Both the position numbers and the translations under genes were made by a program. From the NCBI GenBank assembly GCA_029856435.1, contig JAHQXB010000163.1, positions 1 to 34,759 of the forward strand: a DNA stretch of 34,759 bases, written 5' to 3'. The first letter of the stretch is position 1. Each line of letters starts with the position of its first letter. The notes under the pieces are model-generated. The model did no database searches and was not told where the DNA came from. It saw only the letters and a list, made by a program, of their open reading frames with translations. The DNA comes from Candidatus Jordarchaeia archaeon. Lineage in GTDB: Archaea > Asgardarchaeota > Jordiarchaeia > Jordiarchaeales > Jordiarchaeaceae. Shown one piece after another: positions 16,559 through 25,864 of this stretch.

Positions 16559-17107
16559 CTAGAAGGATTTGAATTTTCCTTTGGGGGAGTTGTATATGGA
16601 GCACTTGTTTGGAGTTTCACCTTTGGGGGTGTAGCCACACACGGAGCACATGTTTATTGGTCCAAAACTGGCGTCTTTGCCCTAGTCTACAGATTTTTTG
16701 CCTTTTCATATAAATCAAGATGGGTGGGTCTTCTCAGCTACAAGAGCCTACTCAAAACTATTCGCTGCAGCCTTTTCGTCTTGAAGATTAGCTACAGCAA
16801 TGTAGGTGGGGTACATCTCGTTGACTTCGAAGGTTTCCCCATCAATTCCCGCTTGAAGATCCTCATAAGTGTTTGTGGTTCCAAAGATGGCTCCAGAAAT
16901 GGTAACGGCTTCCCCCCTGCTTTTTATAATGCGGTAGTGGTTGCCTGCATGAAACTTCTCGGCAAAAGATGTTGCCTGAAACAATCGGACAACGTTGGGA
17001 AACTTGTTCTTCTCTGCTCTCTCTGAATAAATTAAATATCTCATGTGAGCCTGGCCCTCTTCAGCATAAACACTTCTAAGATTAGTTTCAGTCATTTCCT
17101 TAGCCAT
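16559..17107 (-). pseudogene. rbr: Rubrerythrin pseudogene
   Basis: ETNL..EGQAHMRY, AEKFHA and E..EVNEMYP are followed by TAG (16748-16750) where Trp is expected, then ALVAEKTH. Further stops at ~16715, ~16706 and ~16682, a compensated frameshift (DLYEKAK), and a degraded rubredoxin tail CSVCGY...KCSIY...KFKSF*. Confidence 0.85.
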
Positions 17108-17153
17108 AAAATACGCCCTCCAATATTTTAAAAATTGATAGTATATCATATAG

Positions 17154-17237: not shown

Positions 17238-17505
17238 AGAATTAGTTTGGTTCGTGCATTTGAGGACCAAGGGGCCTTCAACGTCAAAAAAGCTGAATTT
17301 AAGTTTAACGCGTTGATAAAAAACTTGAAACAGCCCCCTTTTTCAGAAAAGGAGTCTTATAAAACCAGATCTATTCTCACTGGTCAAACGTGGGCAAGTT
17401 AGATTTTGGTTTCCAAGAGATTAAAAAAGTTTAAGAAGCAAGTTTTACAATGGTTTTCAAACAAGCTATTATAACGGGAAAATATTTTGTTGCGTGGTAG
17501 GTTTT

Positions 17506-19896
17506 ATGAAAGCCTCCCAGGATGTTAAGGGTAAGCTTATTGTTAAGGCGGTTAGAAATGTTAGAAGAGGCTATACGAAGGATGAAGCCACAAGGGGCAT
17601 GTTTCGTCCAGGAATCAAGTTGGATTTACAGAGGTCACGCCTAATAACTGAATCGTACAAGATGACTGAAGGCGAGCCCATGCCCATAAGGAGGGCTAAG
17701 GCTCTAGACCATATCCTCAGCAATTTAAAGATTTATATTCAGCCCTGGGAACGCATAGTGGGTAACCACACTGAGGAGCCCAGCGGTCTCTTTTTCCCCA
17801 TAGATATGAATTGGAGAAGCGTTTGGAGGGCTGTCAATTCTGTGGAGGGAAAAGGCCTCCTTGACGATGATGGGCGAAAAGAGTTGGAGGAACTCTGCAA
17901 ATACTGGGATGGTAAATGCATGAGTGATAGGCACAAAAACTTTTTTGGCGGAGAATTAGCCAAATACTGGAGGTATGATGGAACCTTCCTGTGGACCCAC
18001 TGGTCAGAGTTAGGAGTGCCTGATTACGAGAAACTGTTCCGTGTCGGGCTCAAGGGCCTAATTAAAGAAGCAGAGAATAAGCTGGAAGAAATAGAGAGGG
18101 AAGTTCCCCGCAGCTACGTGGAAAAGAAGGAATTCCTACTAGGAGTTATAATCGCACTCAAAGCAGTCATAAAATATGCCCACAGATACGCTAAACTCGC
18201 CAGAGAAATGGCTGAAAGGGAAACCAGAGATAAAGAGTTGAAGCAGAGGCTTCTGGAGATTGCTGAGAACTGCGAATGGGTTCCAGAAAACCCGCCTCGC
18301 ACATTTCTGGAAGCCCTACAGTTCTTCTTCATCATCCACCTGGTACGCTACGTGGAATATTCCACGTTGGGAATTGGAGTGAGGTTCGACAAGGTTTTTG
18401 GGCCCTACTACGAAAAGGATATCGCTGAGGGACGCCTCACAAGAGAGGAAGCCTTAGAACTGTTACAGTTGCTCTGGGTTAAACTGCACGAATTGGGGCT
18501 AATTTATTCCCCCCTACTTACAGCTATTTATGGGGGCGTAGCCTCCCTCCAAGCCATCACAATAGGTGGAACAGACTCAGAAGGCAGGGATGTTACAAAC
18601 GAAGTTAGCTACCTTGTTCTAGACACCGCCCTATCTATGCGCACCCTTGAGCCGAGCATCGCCCTGCGGGTTCACGATGGCACTCCAGACGAACTCTTGG
18701 AGAAGGCTGTCGATGTAATACGTACGGGCATAGGGTACCCTTCACTATTCAATGATCGAGCCATTATTCCCCTACTTCAGAGGTGGAATGTGCCCCTAAA
18801 GGATGCCCGTGACTACTCTGTAAGTGGCTGTGTCTACATAGAGATTCCCGGAAAGTGTATGGCCCGCCGCGCCCCGGGGGGCATCGTCCTACCTAAATGT
18901 TTGTGGTGGGCTCTTCACCAAGGCAAAGACCCAAAGACTGGGGAGCAGAGGGGTGCGCCCACGCCGGATCCCCGAACTTTTAAATCTGTGGAGGACGTGA
19001 TGAACGCTTATCTGGAGCAAGTGCGGTTTTTCTTTGATAAACAGTTGAAGTTGGAAGATACTTGCCGTGAACTCTACGAGAAGTATCTTCCAAGGCCCTA
19101 TTACTCGGCAATTCTGGACGGCTGTATAGAGAAGGCGATGGATTGCAGAAAGTGGGCCTATCCCACTAACTCATTCTGCGTAATTATTGGTCCCACAAAT
19201 GTTGCGGACTCCATAGCGGCTATTAAAAAGGTGGTTTTTGAGGATAAAAAGGTCACCATGGAGGAACTCATAGAGGCCATGGATAATAACTGGAAAGGAT
19301 ATGAGCACATTAGGCAGTTAATGCTCCAGGCGCCCAAGTATGGAAACGATGACGACTATGTGGATGAAATAATGAATGAGGTGCAAGTAAAAACAGAAGC
19401 AGTGATAGAATCATTCAGGGATCGCTTTGGACATCCCTGCCGTGGTGATGGGAGCGGTGTTTCTGCCACCTATGGTGTTGCTTTTGACACCCCTGCAACT
19501 CCTGATGGGCGCTTCGACGGGGAACCATTCGCAGATGCCACTCTCTCCCCCATGATGGGCAGAGATCAGAAAGGGCCCACTGCTGTTCTCAGCTCTGCTG
19601 CCAAAGTCGATGCAGTTAAAACTTACAATCATCTGCTTAATCAGAAGTTTTTGCCAAGTTATCTTGAGGGCGATTACAAACCCGTTTTTATACAGTATCT
19701 CAAAACTTGGAGAGAAATGGGAATACCCCACATACAATTCAACATTGTGGACAAGAAAACCCTAATCGAAGCCCAGATGAAGCCTCAGGAGCACCAGGAC
19801 CTTATTGTACGTGTTGCGGGTTATAGTGCCTACTTTGTGGATCTCAGTAAGGGATTGCAGGACGCAATAATAGCAAGAACCGAACAAAAGTTTTAA
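17506..19896 (+). CDS. Glycyl radical enzyme (PFL2/BssA-like superfamily), substrate unknown
   Basis: C-terminal LIVRVAGYSAYF glycyl loop (Gly codon 19819-19821); thiyl loop SGCVYIEIP (Cys codon 18829-18831); IRRAKAL, PKYGNDDDYVD and ATPDGR motifs; ~796 aa. Confidence 0.93.
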   Translation: MKASQDVKGKLIVKAVRNVRRGYTKDEATRGMFRPGIKLDLQRSRLITESYKMTEGEPMPIRRAKALDHILSNLKIYIQPWERIVGNHTEEPSGLFFPIDMNWRSVWRAVNSVEGKGLLDDDGRKELEELCKYWDGKCMSDRHKNFFGGELAKYWRYDGTFLWTHWSELGVPDYEKLFRVGLKGLIKEAENKLEEIEREVPRSYVEKKEFLLGVIIALKAVIKYAHRYAKLAREMAERETRDKELKQRLLEIAENCEWVPENPPRTFLEALQFFFIIHLVRYVEYSTLGIGVRFDKVFGPYYEKDIAEGRLTREEALELLQLLWVKLHELGLIYSPLLTAIYGGVASLQAITIGGTDSEGRDVTNEVSYLVLDTALSMRTLEPSIALRVHDGTPDELLEKAVDVIRTGIGYPSLFNDRAIIPLLQRWNVPLKDARDYSVSGCVYIEIPGKCMARRAPGGIVLPKCLWWALHQGKDPKTGEQRGAPTPDPRTFKSVEDVMNAYLEQVRFFFDKQLKLEDTCRELYEKYLPRPYYSAILDGCIEKAMDCRKWAYPTNSFCVIIGPTNVADSIAAIKKVVFEDKKVTMEELIEAMDNNWKGYEHIRQLMLQAPKYGNDDDYVDEIMNEVQVKTEAVIESFRDRFGHPCRGDGSGVSATYGVAFDTPATPDGRFDGEPFADATLSPMMGRDQKGPTAVLSSAAKVDAVKTYNHLLNQKFLPSYLEGDYKPVFIQYLKTWREMGIPHIQFNIVDKKTLIEAQMKPQEHQDLIVRVAGYSAYFVDLSKGLQDAIIARTEQKF

Positions 19897-19904
19897 ACTA
19901 AAAA

Positions 19905-19922
19905 GGCGGTGGGATTTCCGCC
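19905..19922 (+). other. Small GC-rich hairpin between GRE and activase genes
   Basis: GGCGG-TGGGATTT-CCGCC just after the GRE stop. Role unknown (mRNA stability or attenuation). Confidence 0.3.
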
Positions 19923-19952
19923 ACTGTTATTGGAGATGTTGCTTGAAATGGA

Positions 19953-20882
19953 TTGTTAAGGGTGGGTGTAAAAAATCTGAAGTTAAAGGGACTTATTTTT
20001 AATATTCAGAGGTTCAGCATTCATGATGGGCCTGGAATAAGAACCACGGTTTTCTTGAAGGGGTGCCCTCTGAGATGCCTTTGGTGTTCCAATCCTGAAT
20101 CTCACGAGCCCTTTCCTACTATTATTGTTCGAGACATTAAGTGTGCTAAGTGTGGAAGCTGCGCTTTGGTGTGTCCTGTGGGTGCCATAAGCTTTGACAG
20201 GGAGAGGGGAAGAGTGATTAACTGGTCGGCTTGTAATCAGTGCTTGGTTTGTGTGGATGCTTGCAAATACCGGTCGCTTAGCATTTGTGGAAGACATATG
20301 GATGTTGATGAGGTTCTTGGGGAGGTGTTGAGAGATGTGCCCTTCTACAAAAATTCTGGTGGTGGGGTGACTGTTTCGGGGGGTGAGCCTCTATTACAAT
20401 GGGAGTTTGCTTCTGAGCTTTGTAAAACCTTTAGGGAAAACAAGCTCCATACTGCTCTCGAGACGTGTGGCTTTGCTCCCTGGAAAATTTTTGAGAGGGT
20501 TTTGGAACATGTGGATTTGGTTCTTTATGATGTTAAGCACCTTGACCCCGTGAAACACAGGGAGGGTACTGGTGTGGATAATGAAGTGATTTTGGATAAC
20601 CTTCATAAAGCAGCAAAAAGGAGACCGGTCTGGATTAGGGTACCCTTAATTGCGGGTTATAATGATTCAAAAGAGCACATTAAAAGCGTGGTGAATTTAG
20701 CCAGAGAGGTGGACGCCAAAAAGATTTCATTGCTGCCCTACCATGAGGGTGGGAAGTCTAAGTGTGAACAAATTGGAAAAACTTATCCCATTCCAGACGC
20801 TAAAGCCCCCCCAGAAGAGTATGTCAAAGAACTAAAAAAGTATATTACAGAGTTAGGAGTGGAAGCAACCATAGGTCACTAG
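19953..20882 (+). CDS. Glycyl-radical enzyme activating protein (radical SAM) with 2x[4Fe-4S] ferredoxin insert
   Basis: IQRFSIHDGPGIRTTVFLKGCPLRCLWCSNPE; CAKCGSCALVC and CNQCLVCVDAC; GVTVSGGEP. Exact start uncertain. Confidence 0.93.
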   Translation: MLRVGVKNLKLKGLIFNIQRFSIHDGPGIRTTVFLKGCPLRCLWCSNPESHEPFPTIIVRDIKCAKCGSCALVCPVGAISFDRERGRVINWSACNQCLVCVDACKYRSLSICGRHMDVDEVLGEVLRDVPFYKNSGGGVTVSGGEPLLQWEFASELCKTFRENKLHTALETCGFAPWKIFERVLEHVDLVLYDVKHLDPVKHREGTGVDNEVILDNLHKAAKRRPVWIRVPLIAGYNDSKEHIKSVVNLAREVDAKKISLLPYHEGGKSKCEQIGKTYPIPDAKAPPEEYVKELKKYITELGVEATIGH

Positions 20883-20971: not shown

Positions 20972-21628
20972 TTGGAGATAAAGGCTCTCGTCTTTGATTT
21001 GGAGGGTACACTTTACAACTCTAGGGAACTTGCCAATGAGTGGCGTGTTCAGGTATTTAAACTACTCAAGGAGAAAACGGGGAGAAGCGAGGAGGATATT
21101 TTGAAAGAATTTTTAAAGATAACTGAAGAATTAAGGGGGCAAGGCTTCAGGAGACCGCCCGTTTCTATGATAGTGGAAAAAGTGGGAATAACTAGGGAGG
21201 AATTCTACAAAGCGATAGACTCGGTGGATGCTAAAAAATTTTTGAAACCAGACCCGGAACTGAAACAAGCTTTGGAACATATGAAGAAGCGGTGGAAGCT
21301 GGCTATGCTTACAAATCTGAGCCGTAAAAGTACTCTCAACATAATTGAAGCCCTGGGCTTAGAACCAGAGATTTTTAATCCCCTGATTACTGCGAGTGAA
21401 ATGGAAAAAGGAAAACCTGACCCGGAACCCTTCAAAAAAATAATTGAGGATTTAGACTTGGAGCCCTCATCCATATTGATGGTGGGTGACAGTGTTTCCT
21501 CGGACCTGGCACCCGCCAAGAAGTTGGGAATGAAAACCGCTCTTGTCAGCGAGAAGGAAAGCTCCCCCCTAGCAGACATAAAAGTTAAAAACATCGTAGA
21601 ATTAAAAGAAATCCTTGAAAACAAATAA
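20972..21628 (+). CDS. HAD-superfamily hydrolase (subfamily IA-like)
   Basis: VFDLEGTL, LTN, KGKPDP, MVGDS...DL...KKLGM motifs. Confidence 0.88.
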   Translation: MEIKALVFDLEGTLYNSRELANEWRVQVFKLLKEKTGRSEEDILKEFLKITEELRGQGFRRPPVSMIVEKVGITREEFYKAIDSVDAKKFLKPDPELKQALEHMKKRWKLAMLTNLSRKSTLNIIEALGLEPEIFNPLITASEMEKGKPDPEPFKKIIEDLDLEPSSILMVGDSVSSDLAPAKKLGMKTALVSEKESSPLADIKVKNIVELKEILENK

Positions 21629-22090: not shown

Positions 22091-23575
22091 TTGTCTGAGA
22101 AATTTGATGTGGTAGTTATTGGCGCTGGTTTAGGTGGGCTCTCCTCAGCCGCCACCCTAGCTAAAAACGGTCTGAGCGTTTTGCTCCTGGATAAACACTA
22201 CAAGCCGGGTGGATATGCAACTTCCTTTGTTAGGGGTAGGTTTGAGTTCGAAGTGGCGCTCCATGCTCTCTCTGGACTGGATCTTGACCGTAAGCGGGGT
22301 TACATGTACCGAATGCTTGAGGAGCTTGGAATAACGAAGAGGGTGGAATTCGTTAAACTTTCCACGCTCTACAAGTCAGTCTACCCAGATTTTGAGTTTG
22401 TGATGCCCGCCGGAAGAGAGAATATTGAGAATGTTCTATTTGACACTTTTCCCAAGGAATCTGAAGGCATTAAGCGTTTCCTTGACCGAATAAGTGCTAC
22501 AAACGCTGTTCTCACCGGGCTTCAGAGAGGGGGAGTGACAAAAGAGCAGATTCAGGAACACTTTGTAAAGTATCAAGATAAGACACTTGCAGAAGTGTTA
22601 AATGCCGACGTTAAAGATGTTAGGGCTCGCGCAATCCTCTCCCAGCTTACTGGCTACTTTGGACTTCCACCCTCAAAGGTTTCCTACATAATAGCTGCGT
22701 CTGGCCTAGACACCTACTTCATGTATGGCGGAGCCCAAATAAGGGGTACCTCCCACACCTTGGCAAATGCCTTCGTAGAGTCCATTACCGAATTTGGGGG
22801 AGAAGTTAGATTAAGCAATGGAGCAAAGAAAATTCTCACAGAAGAAGGCAGAGTAACCGGAGTTGTAACTGAGAAAAACGAGAAAATACAAACAAATTAC
22901 ATAGTTTCAAATGTTAACCCCTTTGCACTATGCAACTTAATAGGCCTAGATAAGATGCCTGAGTCCTTCTTGGAGAAGCTACGCTCAAAGCCCATAGCCA
23001 TAGCAACAGTCTGTGTTTACTTGGGACTGGATGTACCGTACACTGAGCTGGGACTGGATGAATTTGAAATGTTTATTAGCTCAAGCTACGACTTTGACCG
23101 ACTCTACAAAATGAGAAGTCTGGAGCCAACCGAGATTGGACTTGCCACCTACAACCTGGCTTACTCTGAGGCCTCACCGCCCGGAACAACCATTGTGGTG
23201 CTTACCACCATCGCTAATGGCGATGCCTGGACAAAACTGAATCCCGCACAGTACTTTGAAACCAAGACTAGAGTTGGTGACAGAATATTAAGGATCGCTG
23301 AGGAGAAAGTTCCAGGATTAAGGGAGCATATTGAGGTGGTGGAGGTAGCCACACCAATCACAAATATGCGGTACACGGGGAATCCTGAAGGCACAATACT
23401 TGGAACCCCTTACACTCCCGATAACATCCTTGGAAAACGCTTGCCACAAGATGGCCCATTTAAAGGGCTTTACCTTGCCGGAGCCTGGACCCAGGTTGGT
23501 GGAGGATACCAAACCTGCTTGATGTCTGGAAACTGGGCCGCAAACAAGATTCTCAGCGAGTTTAAAAGAAAATAA
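22091..23575 (+). CDS. Phytoene desaturase / retinol-saturase-family FAD-dependent oxidoreductase (COG1233-like)
   Basis: VVIGAGLGGL...DKHYKPGGYATSF..GRFEFEV, VATP.T..RYTG and LYLAGAW...GGG motifs; GGAGTGA RBS. Confidence 0.85.
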   Translation: MSEKFDVVVIGAGLGGLSSAATLAKNGLSVLLLDKHYKPGGYATSFVRGRFEFEVALHALSGLDLDRKRGYMYRMLEELGITKRVEFVKLSTLYKSVYPDFEFVMPAGRENIENVLFDTFPKESEGIKRFLDRISATNAVLTGLQRGGVTKEQIQEHFVKYQDKTLAEVLNADVKDVRARAILSQLTGYFGLPPSKVSYIIAASGLDTYFMYGGAQIRGTSHTLANAFVESITEFGGEVRLSNGAKKILTEEGRVTGVVTEKNEKIQTNYIVSNVNPFALCNLIGLDKMPESFLEKLRSKPIAIATVCVYLGLDVPYTELGLDEFEMFISSSYDFDRLYKMRSLEPTEIGLATYNLAYSEASPPGTTIVVLTTIANGDAWTKLNPAQYFETKTRVGDRILRIAEEKVPGLREHIEVVEVATPITNMRYTGNPEGTILGTPYTPDNILGKRLPQDGPFKGLYLAGAWTQVGGGYQTCLMSGNWAANKILSEFKRK

Positions 23576-24167: not shown

Positions 24168-24340
24168 GGAATTATTCTAAATTCTTTTATTCACAGTTAT
24201 GAGTAGTATTCTCCATTCTTTGTAGCTAAGATAATTGTTTAACGGAGAAGCTTCCTAGTTAGGGATGTGGATAAATCTAATATATTTCCAGTAAAACTTT
24301 ATTTTTTGCCTACACCGATGCTTTGGAAGTCTGTGTTTTT

Positions 24341-25864
24341 ATGACAGTTACTTTATCTCCCGAGAAGGTTTCTAAGGGTTTAAAAAACATAATTTATGAT
24401 GGTGTTTGCTCCCAATCTCTATTCACCCTGACCGGTGGCCCATTTCTAGTGGCTTTTGCACTTATTATGGGGGCGGATAATGCATATATAGGTTACATTA
24501 CTGCGGTATCTTTTCTAAGCCAGTTGATTCAAATCCCCACCATATACTTGATTGAAAAGCTTGGCAGGAGGAAGCTCATAACAATACTAGGTTCCCTAAC
24601 AAGCCGAGCTTTGTGGATTATTATTGCTCTTATGCCCTTCTTTGCCCCACAGAACCTACTTCTACTGATTAGCGTTTTTTCCGCTAGCTCTATGCTCGCC
24701 AATATATCTGCGTGTAGCTGGAACTCCTGGATGAGAGATTTAGTTCCCATGGAAACCCGTGGAACGTTTTTTGCAAAAAGGTTCAAGCTGAGTTACTCTC
24801 TAAGCTCTACGCTGGGCATTCTGGCTGGACTTTATATTGATAACTTTGGCGGGGTATCCTCAGAGACGCTAAAAAGTTACTCGGTAATCTTCATCATAGG
24901 AGTAATCTTTGGGATGGTGGGTGTTTTTTTCATTACCCGCATCCCTGAACCTAGCATGGTAAAATCAAAATTCAGCTTCGAACTCCTAAAACAACCATTC
25001 GTGGACAAAAACTTCAGAAAACTGCTCTCCGCCCTTGGCTTTTGGAGTTTTGCCTCTAACCTTGCCACACCATTCATGGCTGTTTACATGCTATCAGTAT
25101 TAGATCTGAACATAGCTTACGTCATGCTTTTCACAATAATTACCCGAATATCCAACATTTATTTCATGGGACCGTTTGGAAAACTAACTGACAGGTTTGG
25201 CAACAAGCCTCTGCTCTCAGTAAGTGCTAGTGTTTTCGTAATTACCACTTTTGCTTGGACATTCACCACGCTCCCCCAAAAGCATATTTTAAGCCTGCCA
25301 ATTCTATTTGTTTTGAGCATATTTCTGGGTATGTCAAATGCGGGCACGGACTTAACCACCCTAAATATTGCTGCTAAATTATCTTACCCTAAGCCCGCTT
25401 CCACCTACCTAGCAAGCGTAGCGATTGTAACTTCCATAGCCTCTGGCATTGCATCAACTCTTGGAGGACTTTTTGCAGACTTTTTTGTACAAAAGCAATT
25501 ATCCCTAACTCTGGAGTGGTCACAGTATGGAATATCCGCCAAGGTGCCGATTCTGTCCTTCGAGGGATTAGATTTCCAATTTATTCTATCATCCCTCGTG
25601 GGCGTATTCTCGGTGGCTTTACTGGGACACGTGGAGGAGGTCGGAGAAGCTCCCCGAAGCATCGTGATTCATGAACTCATAGGTTGGCTGAAAAAAGACG
25701 CAGGACAACTAACTGTAATTGGAGGACGCATCCGTTCCTCACCCCAAATCTTCTACGCACCCATTAGATATTTAAGCAAATATTTCGAGTCACACAAAAA
25801 TAGTTCAAAAAAAGAAAATCGAAAACACAGAGATGACCACTCCACCGATTCAATATTAAAATAG
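24341..25864 (+). CDS. Major facilitator superfamily transporter
   Basis: About 12 hydrophobic segments; motif-A-like IEKLGRRK and LTDRFGNK. ATG at 24341 preferred. Confidence 0.85.
   Translation: MTVTLSPEKVSKGLKNIIYDGVCSQSLFTLTGGPFLVAFALIMGADNAYIGYITAVSFLSQLIQIPTIYLIEKLGRRKLITILGSLTSRALWIIIALMPFFAPQNLLLLISVFSASSMLANISACSWNSWMRDLVPMETRGTFFAKRFKLSYSLSSTLGILAGLYIDNFGGVSSETLKSYSVIFIIGVIFGMVGVFFITRIPEPSMVKSKFSFELLKQPFVDKNFRKLLSALGFWSFASNLATPFMAVYMLSVLDLNIAYVMLFTIITRISNIYFMGPFGKLTDRFGNKPLLSVSASVFVITTFAWTFTTLPQKHILSLPILFVLSIFLGMSNAGTDLTTLNIAAKLSYPKPASTYLASVAIVTSIASGIASTLGGLFADFFVQKQLSLTLEWSQYGISAKVPILSFEGLDFQFILSSLVGVFSVALLGHVEEVGEAPRSIVIHELIGWLKKDAGQLTVIGGRIRSSPQIFYAPIRYLSKYFESHKNSSKKENRKHRDDHSTDSILK

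Follow-up and report, generated by a model that had tools for sequence, protein, structure and literature searches.

A stand-alone glycyl radical enzyme in a Jordarchaeia genome and the mainly bacterial G-C-V-Y family to which it belongs

A stretch of 34,759 nucleotides from a Candidatus Jordarchaeia archaeon (GenBank GCA_029856435.1, contig JAHQXB010000163.1), called the window below, encodes a glycyl radical enzyme (GRE) that is a stand-alone, alpha-only enzyme with its own activase and belongs to a tightly conserved family marked by a G-C-V-Y Cys loop. Judged by its sequence, it is not a pyruvate formate-lyase (PFL), not an eliminase or isomerase of the CXE type and not a known decarboxylase, and it is very probably an uncharacterised, carboxylate-handling member of a non-CXE superclade related to the X-succinate synthases (XSS). 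As to its reaction, we tentatively favour a radical mechanism like that of XSS, in which a C-C bond is formed to fumarate or another 2-enoate, without beta and gamma subunits.

The gene pair and its surroundings

The GRE reading frame is free of stops from 17494 to 19896 on the forward strand (Table 1). A GTG at 17494 would yield 800 aa, and the ATG at 17506 is the start that matches the N-terminus of the family; residue numbers used here count from the GTG, and subtraction of 4 gives the numbering of the 796-aa form. The features of the PFL-like GRE superfamily are all present, namely the R-V-x-G-[FYW] glycyl loop, a mid-chain Cys loop, a PFL-like fold and a cognate radical-SAM activase, and Pfam detects both the PFL-like (PF02901, 575 bits) and the Gly_radical domain (PF01228, 93 bits). 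The initial annotation had described an intact GRE of about 796 aa with an RVAGY loop and a single-Cys loop, which the frame, the domains and the motifs bear out, and the Arg-Arg codons lie where it had placed them. The AF2 model, whose Gly domain has low pLDDT, matches solved GREs with TM 0.83-0.89; Foldseek against the PDB returned this range for every GRE class, so that the fold does not discriminate between classes.

Table 1. Features of the window in and around the GRE locus
Feature	Positions	Strand	Remarks
Rubrerythrin gene	16748..17149	-	divergent, upstream of the GRE; context
TATA-like box (ATTATAAC)	17466..17473	+	read directly from the sequence
GRE gene, G-C-V-Y family	17506..19896	+	796 aa from ATG; PFL-like and Gly_radical domains
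W170-S-E172	18001..18009	+	alignment columns
Cys (thiyl) loop G-C446-V-Y448-I-E450-I-P-G-K-C-M-A-R458-R459-A-P-G-G	18826..18882	+	
Cys codon of the loop	18829-18831	+	
Tyr codon of the loop	18835-18837	+	
Arg-Arg codons of the loop	18865-18870	+	
Glycyl radical loop V-R-V-A-G776-Y-S-A-Y-F	19807..19836	+	invariant in the family; V-R-V-A-G776-Y part 19807-19824
Radical-SAM GRE-activating enzyme, two-cluster ferredoxin insert	19953..20882	+	TIGR02494 357 bits (cut-off 174)
HAD hydrolase	20972-21628	+	co-oriented with the GRE; context only
CrtI-like FAD oxidoreductase	22091-23575	+	co-oriented with the GRE; context only
MFS transporter	24323-25864	+	co-oriented with the GRE; context only

The activase gene starts 56 nt 3' of the GRE gene. 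Its TIGR02494 match and two ferredoxin-type Cys clusters agree with the activase with a 2x[4Fe-4S] insert that had been read behind the GRE, and none of the equivalog models reaches its cut-off with this protein. From established GRE chemistry, the activase and SAM would generate a radical on Gly776, which would in turn produce a thiyl radical on Cys446. The TATA-like box, about 35 nt 5' of the GRE ATG, is a possible archaeal promoter, from which the transcript would be nearly leaderless. The rubrerythrin encoded upstream may serve in oxygen protection; related GRE loci also have other oxygen-stress genes as neighbours. A pathway made up of the GRE with the HAD, CrtI-like and MFS genes was considered and rejected as a conserved system, their synteny being confined to three near-identical Jord/Freyarchaeal MAGs; five further Asgard loci lack these genes next to the GRE, and so does every bacterial locus, with the exception of one HAD gene 5 kb away.

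The statement that no Cys-rich small-subunit gene accompanies the GRE-activase pair also stands. Such an ORF is found neither in the 344-nt spacer upstream of the GRE nor between GRE and activase, and a same-strand scan of 13 family loci detected no conserved one; in four of these loci it picked up chance ORFs that overlap other genes. The same scan detected flanking 55-80-aa ORFs with four Cys in the BssA and MasD-like control loci; unlike these, a deep XSS-like locus (L172) showed no flanking small Cys-rich subunit ORFs. Small subunits were likewise not seen adjacent to the GREs of five Asgard C-M-V-P loci.

Class, family and phylogenetic position

Among 121 family sequences, the motif G-C-V-Y-x-[ED]-x-P-G-K..R-R is invariant but for a single replacement at the R458 position (Arg in 120 of the 121); C, V, Y, P-G-K and R459 occur in all. 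The second residue after the Cys (C+2), Glu in the CXE motif, is therefore always Tyr448, and a review of June 2026 that covers every GRE class lists no characterised class with this loop. The GRE also scores below every NCBIfam equivalog cut-off, including those for HypD (516 against 1100 bits), CutC (437 against 1050), HpsG (554 against 1000), HpfG (455 against 1000) and PflD (411 against 1109). The earlier conclusion that it is neither a PFL nor a GCVE eliminase is upheld by the motifs and by these cut-offs.

The family comprises more than 120 clusters (at 90% identity) with 66-96% identity, mostly from Desulfobacterota-like bacteria, Syntrophales, Chloroflexi and Bacillota. Of 301 sampled genomes from one Desulfobacterota-like phylum, about 7% carry the family, often with two or three copies each, and its conservation across domains is very high (62-70% identity). 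In the family tree, Asgard members occur in two clades apart from each other. The family is thus mainly bacterial and was acquired by Asgard archaea through horizontal transfer at least twice, and the archaeal GRE clade proposed initially has to be abandoned. No paper describing the family was found in the literature; one on the benzene 'Magic' gene cluster proved unrelated. An initial scan with bssA primers returned mostly chance matches in GC-rich DNA, and about ten of the loci encoded GREs.

In an IQ-TREE LG+G4 tree of 50 rows, the family (18 rows) and XSS (12 rows) are each monophyletic and are sisters, with support of 100/99 for the XSS clade and the same for the clade uniting the two. 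The superclade of XSS and non-CXE GREs was recovered at 99 both by FastTree (98 rows) and under LG+C20 PMSF, and in these two trees, with more clades added, the family and XSS fall in sister subclades. The nearest relatives of the family are uncharacterised non-CXE GRE clades of its own subclade, with 40-49% identity. The HPAD branch falls outside the clade of XSS plus family; the trees were built without PhdB, IAD, AAD and IslA sequences, and PAD was compared by motif only. The suspected alliance with fumarate-adding enzymes is thus well supported in three trees, and the phylogenetic check places the family beside, rather than inside, the XSS clade.

Active site, gene context and the candidate reactions

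In the alignments, the Arg-Arg pair coincides with the fumarate-binding Arg508 of benzylsuccinate synthase (BSS) to within one or two columns: hhalign profile-profile alignment places R458 on BssA Arg508 and MAFFT with intermediate sequences places R459 there, while other MAFFT runs move the column to A457 or P461. The approximate placement first made by eye agrees with the first two of these alignments, and the instability of the column weighs against an addition reaction. The structures of BSS (TutD/BssA; PDB 4PKC, 5BWE) and MASS (MasD; PDB 9O8U) share as fumarate contacts only the Cys-loop oxyanion hole and this Arg, the MASS counterpart Arg492 binding one fumarate carboxylate (PMC12358834; PMC11194802). 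Four BSS pocket residues (I384, L391, I617, V709) are identical in the GRE, whose pocket is apolar, and the segments EPSI, GYPS, PDGRF.GE and TW...H.QFN, whose resemblance to BssA had been noted by eye, indeed align more closely with BssA than with glycerol dehydratase. The invariant family motif, the trees, the Arg pair, the published structures and the pocket count in favour of radical addition. Against it stand the replacement of the XSS-wide C-[MI]-S-P loop by C-V-Y-[ILM] and of Trp613 by Phe (Phe561), and the lack of the beta and gamma subunits that, according to the review, every characterised XSS possesses. In the proposed mechanism, the carboxylate of a substrate or co-substrate would be anchored by Arg458-Arg459, Tyr448 and Glu172 may stand in for the acid/base residues of eliminases, and the product would be a carboxylic acid.

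The gene context adds to both sides. In bacteria, the genes that recur around the GRE encode TetR regulators, acyl-CoA ligases, acyl-CoA dehydrogenases and SCPx-thiolase/DUF35 pairs: a co-oriented ligase lies directly beside the GRE in six independent loci, and by raw counts, made without a background control, an acyl-CoA dehydrogenase lies near 9 of 32 loci and an SCPx-thiolase (with DUF35) near 4. The acid product could there be activated with CoA by the adjacent ligase and then degraded through acyl-CoA dehydrogenase and SCPx-thiolase/DUF35. One locus carries the genes for acyl-CoA dehydrogenase, DUF35, thiolase and GRE 5 kb from a MasD-like XSS, and the family occurs in 5 of 12 XSS-bearing genomes against 17 of 289 others, a co-occurrence in which genome size and relatedness are confounders. 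In archaeal loci, only the activase is conserved beside the GRE, and the other Asgard neighbours are unrelated housekeeping or repeat proteins. Addition is disfavoured by the genes for a mutase, a carboxyltransferase and a BbsEF-type CoA-transferase not being seen near family loci, by LivJ-type solute-binding proteins in four loci, which suggest a polar acid taken up by the cell, not a hydrocarbon, and by the cross-domain identity, which suggests one common substrate. An assignment of the TetR neighbours to FadR was rejected; the link to long-chain acyl-CoA sensing is weak, because only the TetR of one locus (L008) exceeds the FadR equivalog cut-off, the others scoring 45-59 bits against 200.

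The first alternative, less likely although credible, is a new type of eliminase or isomerase with a hydrophobic hydroxy- or amino-acid as its substrate, in which the Arg pair would bind the carboxylate, Glu172 and Tyr448 would replace the C+2 Glu, and the enoate or oxo-acid product would be reduced or CoA-activated. E172 is invariant, and W170 nearly so, in a 25-sequence family alignment, and its column is that of a catalytic residue in eliminases, occupied by His164 in glycerol dehydratase, Asp216 in CutC, Arg176 in PFL and Ser199 in BSS. OYE/enoate-reductase-like genes lie directly downstream in two loci and in the neighbourhood of a third, and these, HpaB/4-hydroxybutyryl-CoA-dehydratase-like genes, the LivJ-type proteins and the ligases would all fit, as would the invariant Tyr448 and the top PDB sequence match, glycerol dehydratase (477 bits). 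However, the six known C-O eliminases, CutC, the C-S lyases and the three isomerases all retain CXE (review), the family branches with XSS outside the eliminase and isomerase clades, and the pocket is apolar, with glycerol dehydratase His164, Ser282, Tyr339, Asp447 and Tyr640 replaced by Glu, Gly, Leu, Ala and Ser.

Somewhat less probable again is a single-subunit decarboxylase of the aryl- or alkyl-acetate type, similar to AAD, which would work by hydrogen-atom transfer with Tyr448 as proton donor and the Arg pair holding the carboxylate. A single subunit, an apolar pocket and a carboxylate anchor suit such an enzyme; PaaK-like ligases occur in three loci, and C+13 (R459) corresponds to PhdB Trp495, counted from Cys482, which is catalytically essential together with PhdB Tyr691 (review). 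Yet the scores fall short of the model cut-offs for both HPAD (328 against 1150 bits) and IAD (432 against 1100), HPAD lies outside the clade of XSS plus family, and the residues differ: C+2 is Tyr, where HPAD and IAD have Glu, and of the PAD set Gln484/Trp495/Tyr691 the first is absent and the second is Arg. A hydrocarbon product, moreover, would have no need of adjacent CoA ligase, dehydrogenase and thiolase genes.

A true alkyl- or benzylsuccinate synthase, as claimed for similar GREs of Asgard Hermodarchaeota that were annotated as Ass/Bss at 29-33% identity to AssA/BssA (PMC8163825), is very unlikely: the present enzyme has a comparable identity of about 31% to BssA, but this is no higher than its 34% to glycerol dehydratase, and the position outside the XSS clade, the absence of the C-M-S-P loop and of Trp613 and the missing small subunits all speak against it. 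An ordinary PFL or glycerol dehydratase, as suggested by the database names 'formate C-acetyltransferase' and 'PFL/glycerol dehydratase family' and by TIGR01774 being the best NCBIfam model, is refuted by the motifs (G-C-V-Y with a single Cys in place of the PFL Cys-Cys pair, no CXE, all glycerol dehydratase substrate-binding residues lost) and by scores of 96 against 994 bits for TIGR01255 (PFL) and 586 against 678 for TIGR01774.

Significance and comparison with known systems

Extended from this enzyme to the whole family, the addition reading becomes slightly less probable: the family may be a subunit-free GRE hydroalkylase, widespread in anoxic sediments, which Asgard archaea received from bacteria and which adds a carbon radical to fumarate or another 2-enoate by means of an Arg-Arg clamp and the Cys-loop Tyr. 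According to the 2026 superfamily review, entire clades of GREs, and every archaeal PFL-like GRE, still await an assigned function. If the hydroalkylase reading were true, no archaeal PFL-like GRE would have been assigned a function before this one, and C-C bond formation of the X-succinate type would be possible without beta and gamma subunits. Assigning the reaction would reveal either a reaction new to GREs or a far simpler hydroalkylase, of relevance to anaerobic carbon cycling, bioremediation and C(sp3)-C(sp3) biocatalysis, for which the multi-subunit XSS are hard to handle, and would correct the habit in the literature of naming Asgard GREs 'Ass/Bss' on about 30% identity. As a widespread cousin of XSS without helper subunits, belonging to an oxygen-sensitive type of radical enzyme, the family is a good target in the search for new anaerobic chemistry; its abundance, its conservation across domains and the combination of a Tyr at the eliminase Glu site with Arg-Arg at the XSS fumarate site (by alignment, within one or two columns) deserve attention.

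Among known systems, PFL2/PflD of Archaeoglobus fulgidus (PDB 2F3O) is likewise an archaeal GRE of debated function without small subunits, but it has a G-C-V-E loop (as read from the AfPFL2-like sequence used), belongs to another clade and matches the present GRE with 401 bits. The CXE 1,2-eliminases (PDB 1R8W, 5I2A, 6VXC, 5FAU), which include the B12-independent glycerol and diol dehydratases, score highest in both the sequence and the Foldseek comparison (477 bits, TM 0.88) and share chain length, the G-C-V start, loop length and the general activase type; they differ in the catalytic C+2 Glu, which is Tyr in the family, in five glycerol dehydratase active-site residues and in clade. The uncharacterised non-CXE clades have C-M-[WIVQ]-P, C-A-V-I, C-V-S-W, C-V-G-W and C-V-R-W loops and include an Asgard C-M-V-P subfamily; their C-M-x-P groups retain the P-G-K-N and [HR]-R motifs, and the clades differ from the family in Cys-loop residues. 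From XSS, finally, the family is set apart by its place in the sister subclade, with G-C-V-Y instead of [LA]-C-M-S-P, Arg-Arg at C+12/13 instead of a single Arg at C+15, Phe instead of Trp613, no beta, gamma or delta subunits and about 31% identity. With XSS it shares the non-CXE superclade, an Arg just after the Cys loop, a partly identical apolar pocket, the BssA-like segments and, in some bacteria, downstream genes of the CoA-dependent beta-oxidation type.

The glycyl radical enzyme and its activase

The glycyl radical enzyme (GRE) and the radical-SAM activase that follows it form a genuine, intact pair. Translated from the ATG at 17506, the uninterrupted reading frame gives 796 amino acids, in agreement with the N-terminal consensus of the family; residues are numbered here from the GTG at 17494, and four must be subtracted for the 796-residue form. 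The GRE matches the Pfam PFL-like (575 bits) and Gly_radical (93 bits) models, and the activase reaches 357 bits on TIGR02494 (cut-off 174). The 344-nt spacer upstream of the GRE carries a TATA-like box about 35 nt 5' of the ATG and no Cys-rich reading frame. All that the initial annotation described seeing here, including the two loops and the ferredoxin-cluster activase, is confirmed.

Features of the GRE locus and of related loci
Feature	Position	Strand	Details
GRE reading frame	17494-19896	+	
Thiyl loop	18826-18882		G-C446-V-Y448-I-E450-I-P-G-K-C-M-A-R458-R459-A-P-G-G
Loop position 455	18856-18858		
Glycyl loop			V-R-V-A-G776-Y-S-A-Y-F
Radical-SAM activase	19953-20882		56 nt 3' of GRE; two ferredoxin-type clusters
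Rubrerythrin gene	16748-17149	-	beside GRE locus
Further GRE, same genome (L160)	C142:3855-5894		
Further GRE, same genome (L162)	C82:6772-8751		
Further GRE, same genome (L163)	C46:11799-13259		
Hemerythrin gene, Syntrophales locus L002	8350-8892		beside related GRE
Bacterial locus L185	G387:C19:57000-76900		

Rubrerythrin beside the window locus, hemerythrin in the Syntrophales locus and AhpC adjoining three Asgard C-M-V-P GRE loci (L182-L184) place oxygen- or peroxide-defence genes near oxygen-sensitive GREs of unrelated genomes, which could reflect protective co-localisation or chance. The 3.5-Mb window genome holds four GRE paralogues in total; the other three are PFL-like with Cys-X-Glu (CXE) loops (G-C-V-E, G-C-V-E and G-C-L-E), one of them a 996-residue protein with a long extension at its N-terminus, and one having an R-V-T-G-Y glycyl loop.

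A conserved cross-domain family allied with the X-succinate synthases

The G-C-V-Y GREs are a conserved family with a non-CXE loop that spans both domains. A protein search yielded over 120 clusters, 66-96% identical to the window GRE, from Lokiarchaeia, Hodarchaeota, Thermodesulfobacteriota, Syntrophales, Chloroflexi, Bacillota and metagenomes, the nearest named genomes being Ca. Freyarchaeota and Jordarchaeia MAGs (97% identity). G-C-V-Y, P-G-K and R459 are invariant in 121 of 121 family sequences, R458 is Arg in 120, and 111 have Glu or Asp at position 450. Ten members have Cys instead of Glu at position 450; at position 455, Cys occurs in the window's clade (Jordarchaeia/Freyarchaeota and Lokiarchaeia) and Asn (P-G-K-N) in 117 of the 121. 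Clustering at 50% collapses the entire family to one representative; beyond it, at 40-48% identity, come numerous uncharacterised GREs whose differing loops are likewise non-CXE (C-M-W-P, C-M-I-P with A-R-R after it, C-M-Q-P, C-A-V-I, C-V-S-W, C-V-G-W, C-V-R-W and C-V-R-P).

The window GRE falls far under the cut-off of every NCBIfam equivalog, including HpsG (554 bits against 1000), HypD (516 against 1100), CutC (437 against 1050), IAD (432 against 1100), PflD (411 against 1109) and HPAD (328 against 1150). Judged by sequence score, the solved GRE classes are roughly equidistant from it (glycerol dehydratase (GDH) 477 bits, A. fulgidus PFL2 401, MasD 382, TutD 371). For residue comparisons, GDH, HypD, CutC, YbiW, PflD and PflB were taken from plasmid records, while benzylsuccinate synthase (BSS) was represented by a TutD orthologue found with the bssA primer (1621 bits to 4PKC), the MasD-type synthase (MASS) by MasD-like sequences (773 bits to 9O8U) and HPAD by a sequence exceeding the HPAD model cut-off. 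In this alignment not one GDH eliminase residue is kept: the window GRE has Glu for His164, Gly for Ser282, Leu for Tyr339, Tyr for Glu435, Ala for Asp447 and Ser for Tyr640. According to the June 2026 review by the Drennan, Andorfer and Backman groups, CXE is kept by all C-O, C-N and C-S eliminases and by the three isomerases, the Cys-Cys pair belongs to PFL and TdcE, the arylacetate decarboxylase PhdB (PAD) uses Gln484, Trp495 and Tyr691, and the functionally characterised PFL-like GREs are all bacterial. On this basis, the C-V-Y loop lies outside every characterised class.

In a 50-row tree (IQ-TREE, LG+G4, ultrafast bootstrap/SH-aLRT), the family (100/100) and the X-succinate synthases (XSS; 100/99), comprising BssA-like and MasD-like sequences and a deep G-C-I-S-P form, are sisters at 100/99; neither HPAD, an HpsG-like sequence nor any CXE enzyme falls within this group. 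A FastTree analysis with some 60 representatives of neighbouring clades added and a 37-row LG+C20+F+G4 PMSF tree agree on a superclade (support 99) that splits in two, one subclade containing all XSS with C-M-S-P, C-M-A-P, C-V-S-A and C-V-R-P forms, and the other the G-C-V-Y family, the C-A-V-I and C-M-[WIVQ]-P groups that are its sisters, and the C-V-[SGR]-W forms. Because it falls in the other subclade, the family is a cousin of XSS and not XSS itself. A deep-branching XSS-like GRE (L172, G371:C5; loop G-C-I-S-P-A...R-A-R-R-D) has no small Cys-rich reading frames adjoining it, and could represent a stage between XSS proper and the clades that lack small subunits.

Of 400 Asgard genomes, nine carry the family at 62% identity or more: four out of the six that belong to the window's genus, and five out of 135 from a single other family. 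In a Desulfobacterota-like phylum it is present in 22 of the 301 genomes, several of which have two or three copies, and in a sample of 301 Chloroflexota genomes the seed genome is the sole carrier. The family tree splits the Asgard sequences into two clades, one uniting the window with one Lokiarchaeial and one Hodarchaeal sequence and the other nesting beside a Syntrophobacterales sequence. The family is thus chiefly bacterial and entered Asgard archaea at least twice. The initial annotation had proposed an uncharacterised archaeal GRE clade with features of fumarate-adding enzymes; "uncharacterised" stands, with C-V-Y in no known class. The trees bear out the alliance with XSS, though outside the XSS clade, and model scores and motifs the view that the enzyme is neither PFL nor a CXE eliminase, whereas "archaeal" is not supported, the distribution being mainly bacterial.

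An Asgard subfamily at 46-49% identity to the query (N-N-C-M-V-P...P-G-K-N..H-R) occurs in six Asgard genomes. Its loci L180-L184 (G725, G803, G789, G784 and G864) have an XSS-like Cys loop, and the GREs are repeatedly neighboured by a DUF255 thioredoxin-like protein, AhpC peroxiredoxin and nitroreductase.

Gene neighbourhoods

In bacteria, the family is linked to CoA-dependent acid catabolism. Across 32 family loci, including those from the related-locus and genome-set searches, raw counts taken without a background control set give an activase in 17, a TetR regulator in 10, an acyl-CoA dehydrogenase in nine, an AMP-forming acyl-CoA ligase in eight (the immediate co-oriented neighbour in six independent loci), an SCPx-type thiolase in four (its DUF35 OB-fold partner clear in one and faint in the rest), a LivJ-type solute-binding protein in four, a PaaK-like ligase and an OYE/enoate-reductase-like protein in three each, and an HpaB/4-hydroxybutyryl-CoA-dehydratase-like protein in two. 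One Syntrophales locus has the order TetR, GRE, activase and ligase. At L185 the order is acyl-CoA dehydrogenase, DUF35, SCPx thiolase and G-C-V-Y GRE. The alpha gene of a MasD-like alkylsuccinate synthase is found on the same strand 5 kb away, separated from this string by genes for a multihaem cytochrome and a Fis-type regulator. Of the 12 sampled genomes with an XSS, five also have the family, compared with 17 of the other 289 (Fisher p = 7e-4); genome size and relatedness confound this comparison. In archaea, GRE and activase alone are conserved, with unrelated neighbours elsewhere. HAD, CrtI-like and MFS genes were rejected as conserved partners, their synteny being confined to the window's own genus.

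One Anaerolineales locus (L008, G003:C10) packs two full G-C-V-Y GREs and a truncated third into 10 kb, the copies being separated by a CoA ligase gene and a tandem pair of TetR genes, and tandem copies likewise occur in G344:C19 and G601:C141. At L011, from an uncultured deltaproteobacterium, GRE, activase and ligase are each broken into two or three reading frames, which could represent pseudogenisation or long-read indel errors.

Active site and proposed chemistry

According to the MASS structure paper (PMC12358834; see also PMC11194802), BSS and MASS have just two fumarate contacts in common, the oxyanion hole of the Cys loop and a single Arg at C+15 (BSS Arg508, MASS Arg492); the rest of the contacts differ. 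Both enzymes have a 3-4-residue insertion in the Cys loop, and therefore the Arg508 column shifts between alignments: its counterpart is A457 or P461 in two MAFFT runs, R459 when C-M-V-P intermediates are added, and R458 in hhalign (25-sequence family profile against 9-sequence XSS profile). Counted from the catalytic Cys, R459 (C+13) coincides with CutC Thr502 and PAD Trp495, the latter catalytically essential (Drennan, Andorfer and Backman groups, June 2026), and by this analogy an Arg of the pair likely faces the active site. A crystal structure exists for CutC T502A. An AF2 model from 25 family sequences (pLDDT 80, pTM 0.86, glycyl domain poorly predicted) gives Foldseek TM scores of 0.83-0.89 across all GRE classes (GDH 0.88, HypD 0.89, BSS 0.88, MASS 0.89), and fold comparison alone thus does not tell the classes apart.

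The Arg-Arg pair probably holds a carboxylate in a pocket that is apolar elsewhere, and the reaction product would pass into a beta-oxidation-like route. For the reaction itself, our leading, still tentative, reading is that fumarate or another enoate undergoes an XSS-like addition in which no helper subunits take part. An eliminase or isomerase reaction on a hydrophobic hydroxy- or amino acid seems rather unlikely; it would be based on Tyr448 and on Glu172, the counterpart of BSS Ser199. Decarboxylation of the HAT type is less probable again, and the probability left over by all the readings named here goes to a chemistry of a kind yet unimagined. A true XSS is very improbable for a family that sits in the sister subclade and lacks C-[MI]-S-P, Trp613 and the small subunits, and an ordinary PFL or dehydratase is scarcely credible with 96 bits against 994 on the PFL model TIGR01255, 586 against 678 on the PFL2/glycerol-dehydratase subfamily TIGR01774, and the GDH eliminase residues replaced.

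Small 4-Cys reading frames accompany the BssA and MasD-like control loci, and no conserved ones lie beside 13 G-C-V-Y or five C-M-V-P loci. In place of the XSS-wide loop and Trp613, the family has C-V-Y-[ILM] and Phe561. It shares I384, L391, I617 and V709 with the BSS hydrocarbon pocket and has Tyr for F385. The evidence thus shows an XSS-allied family without small subunits that keeps a conserved Arg-Arg pair near the column of the fumarate-binding Arg.
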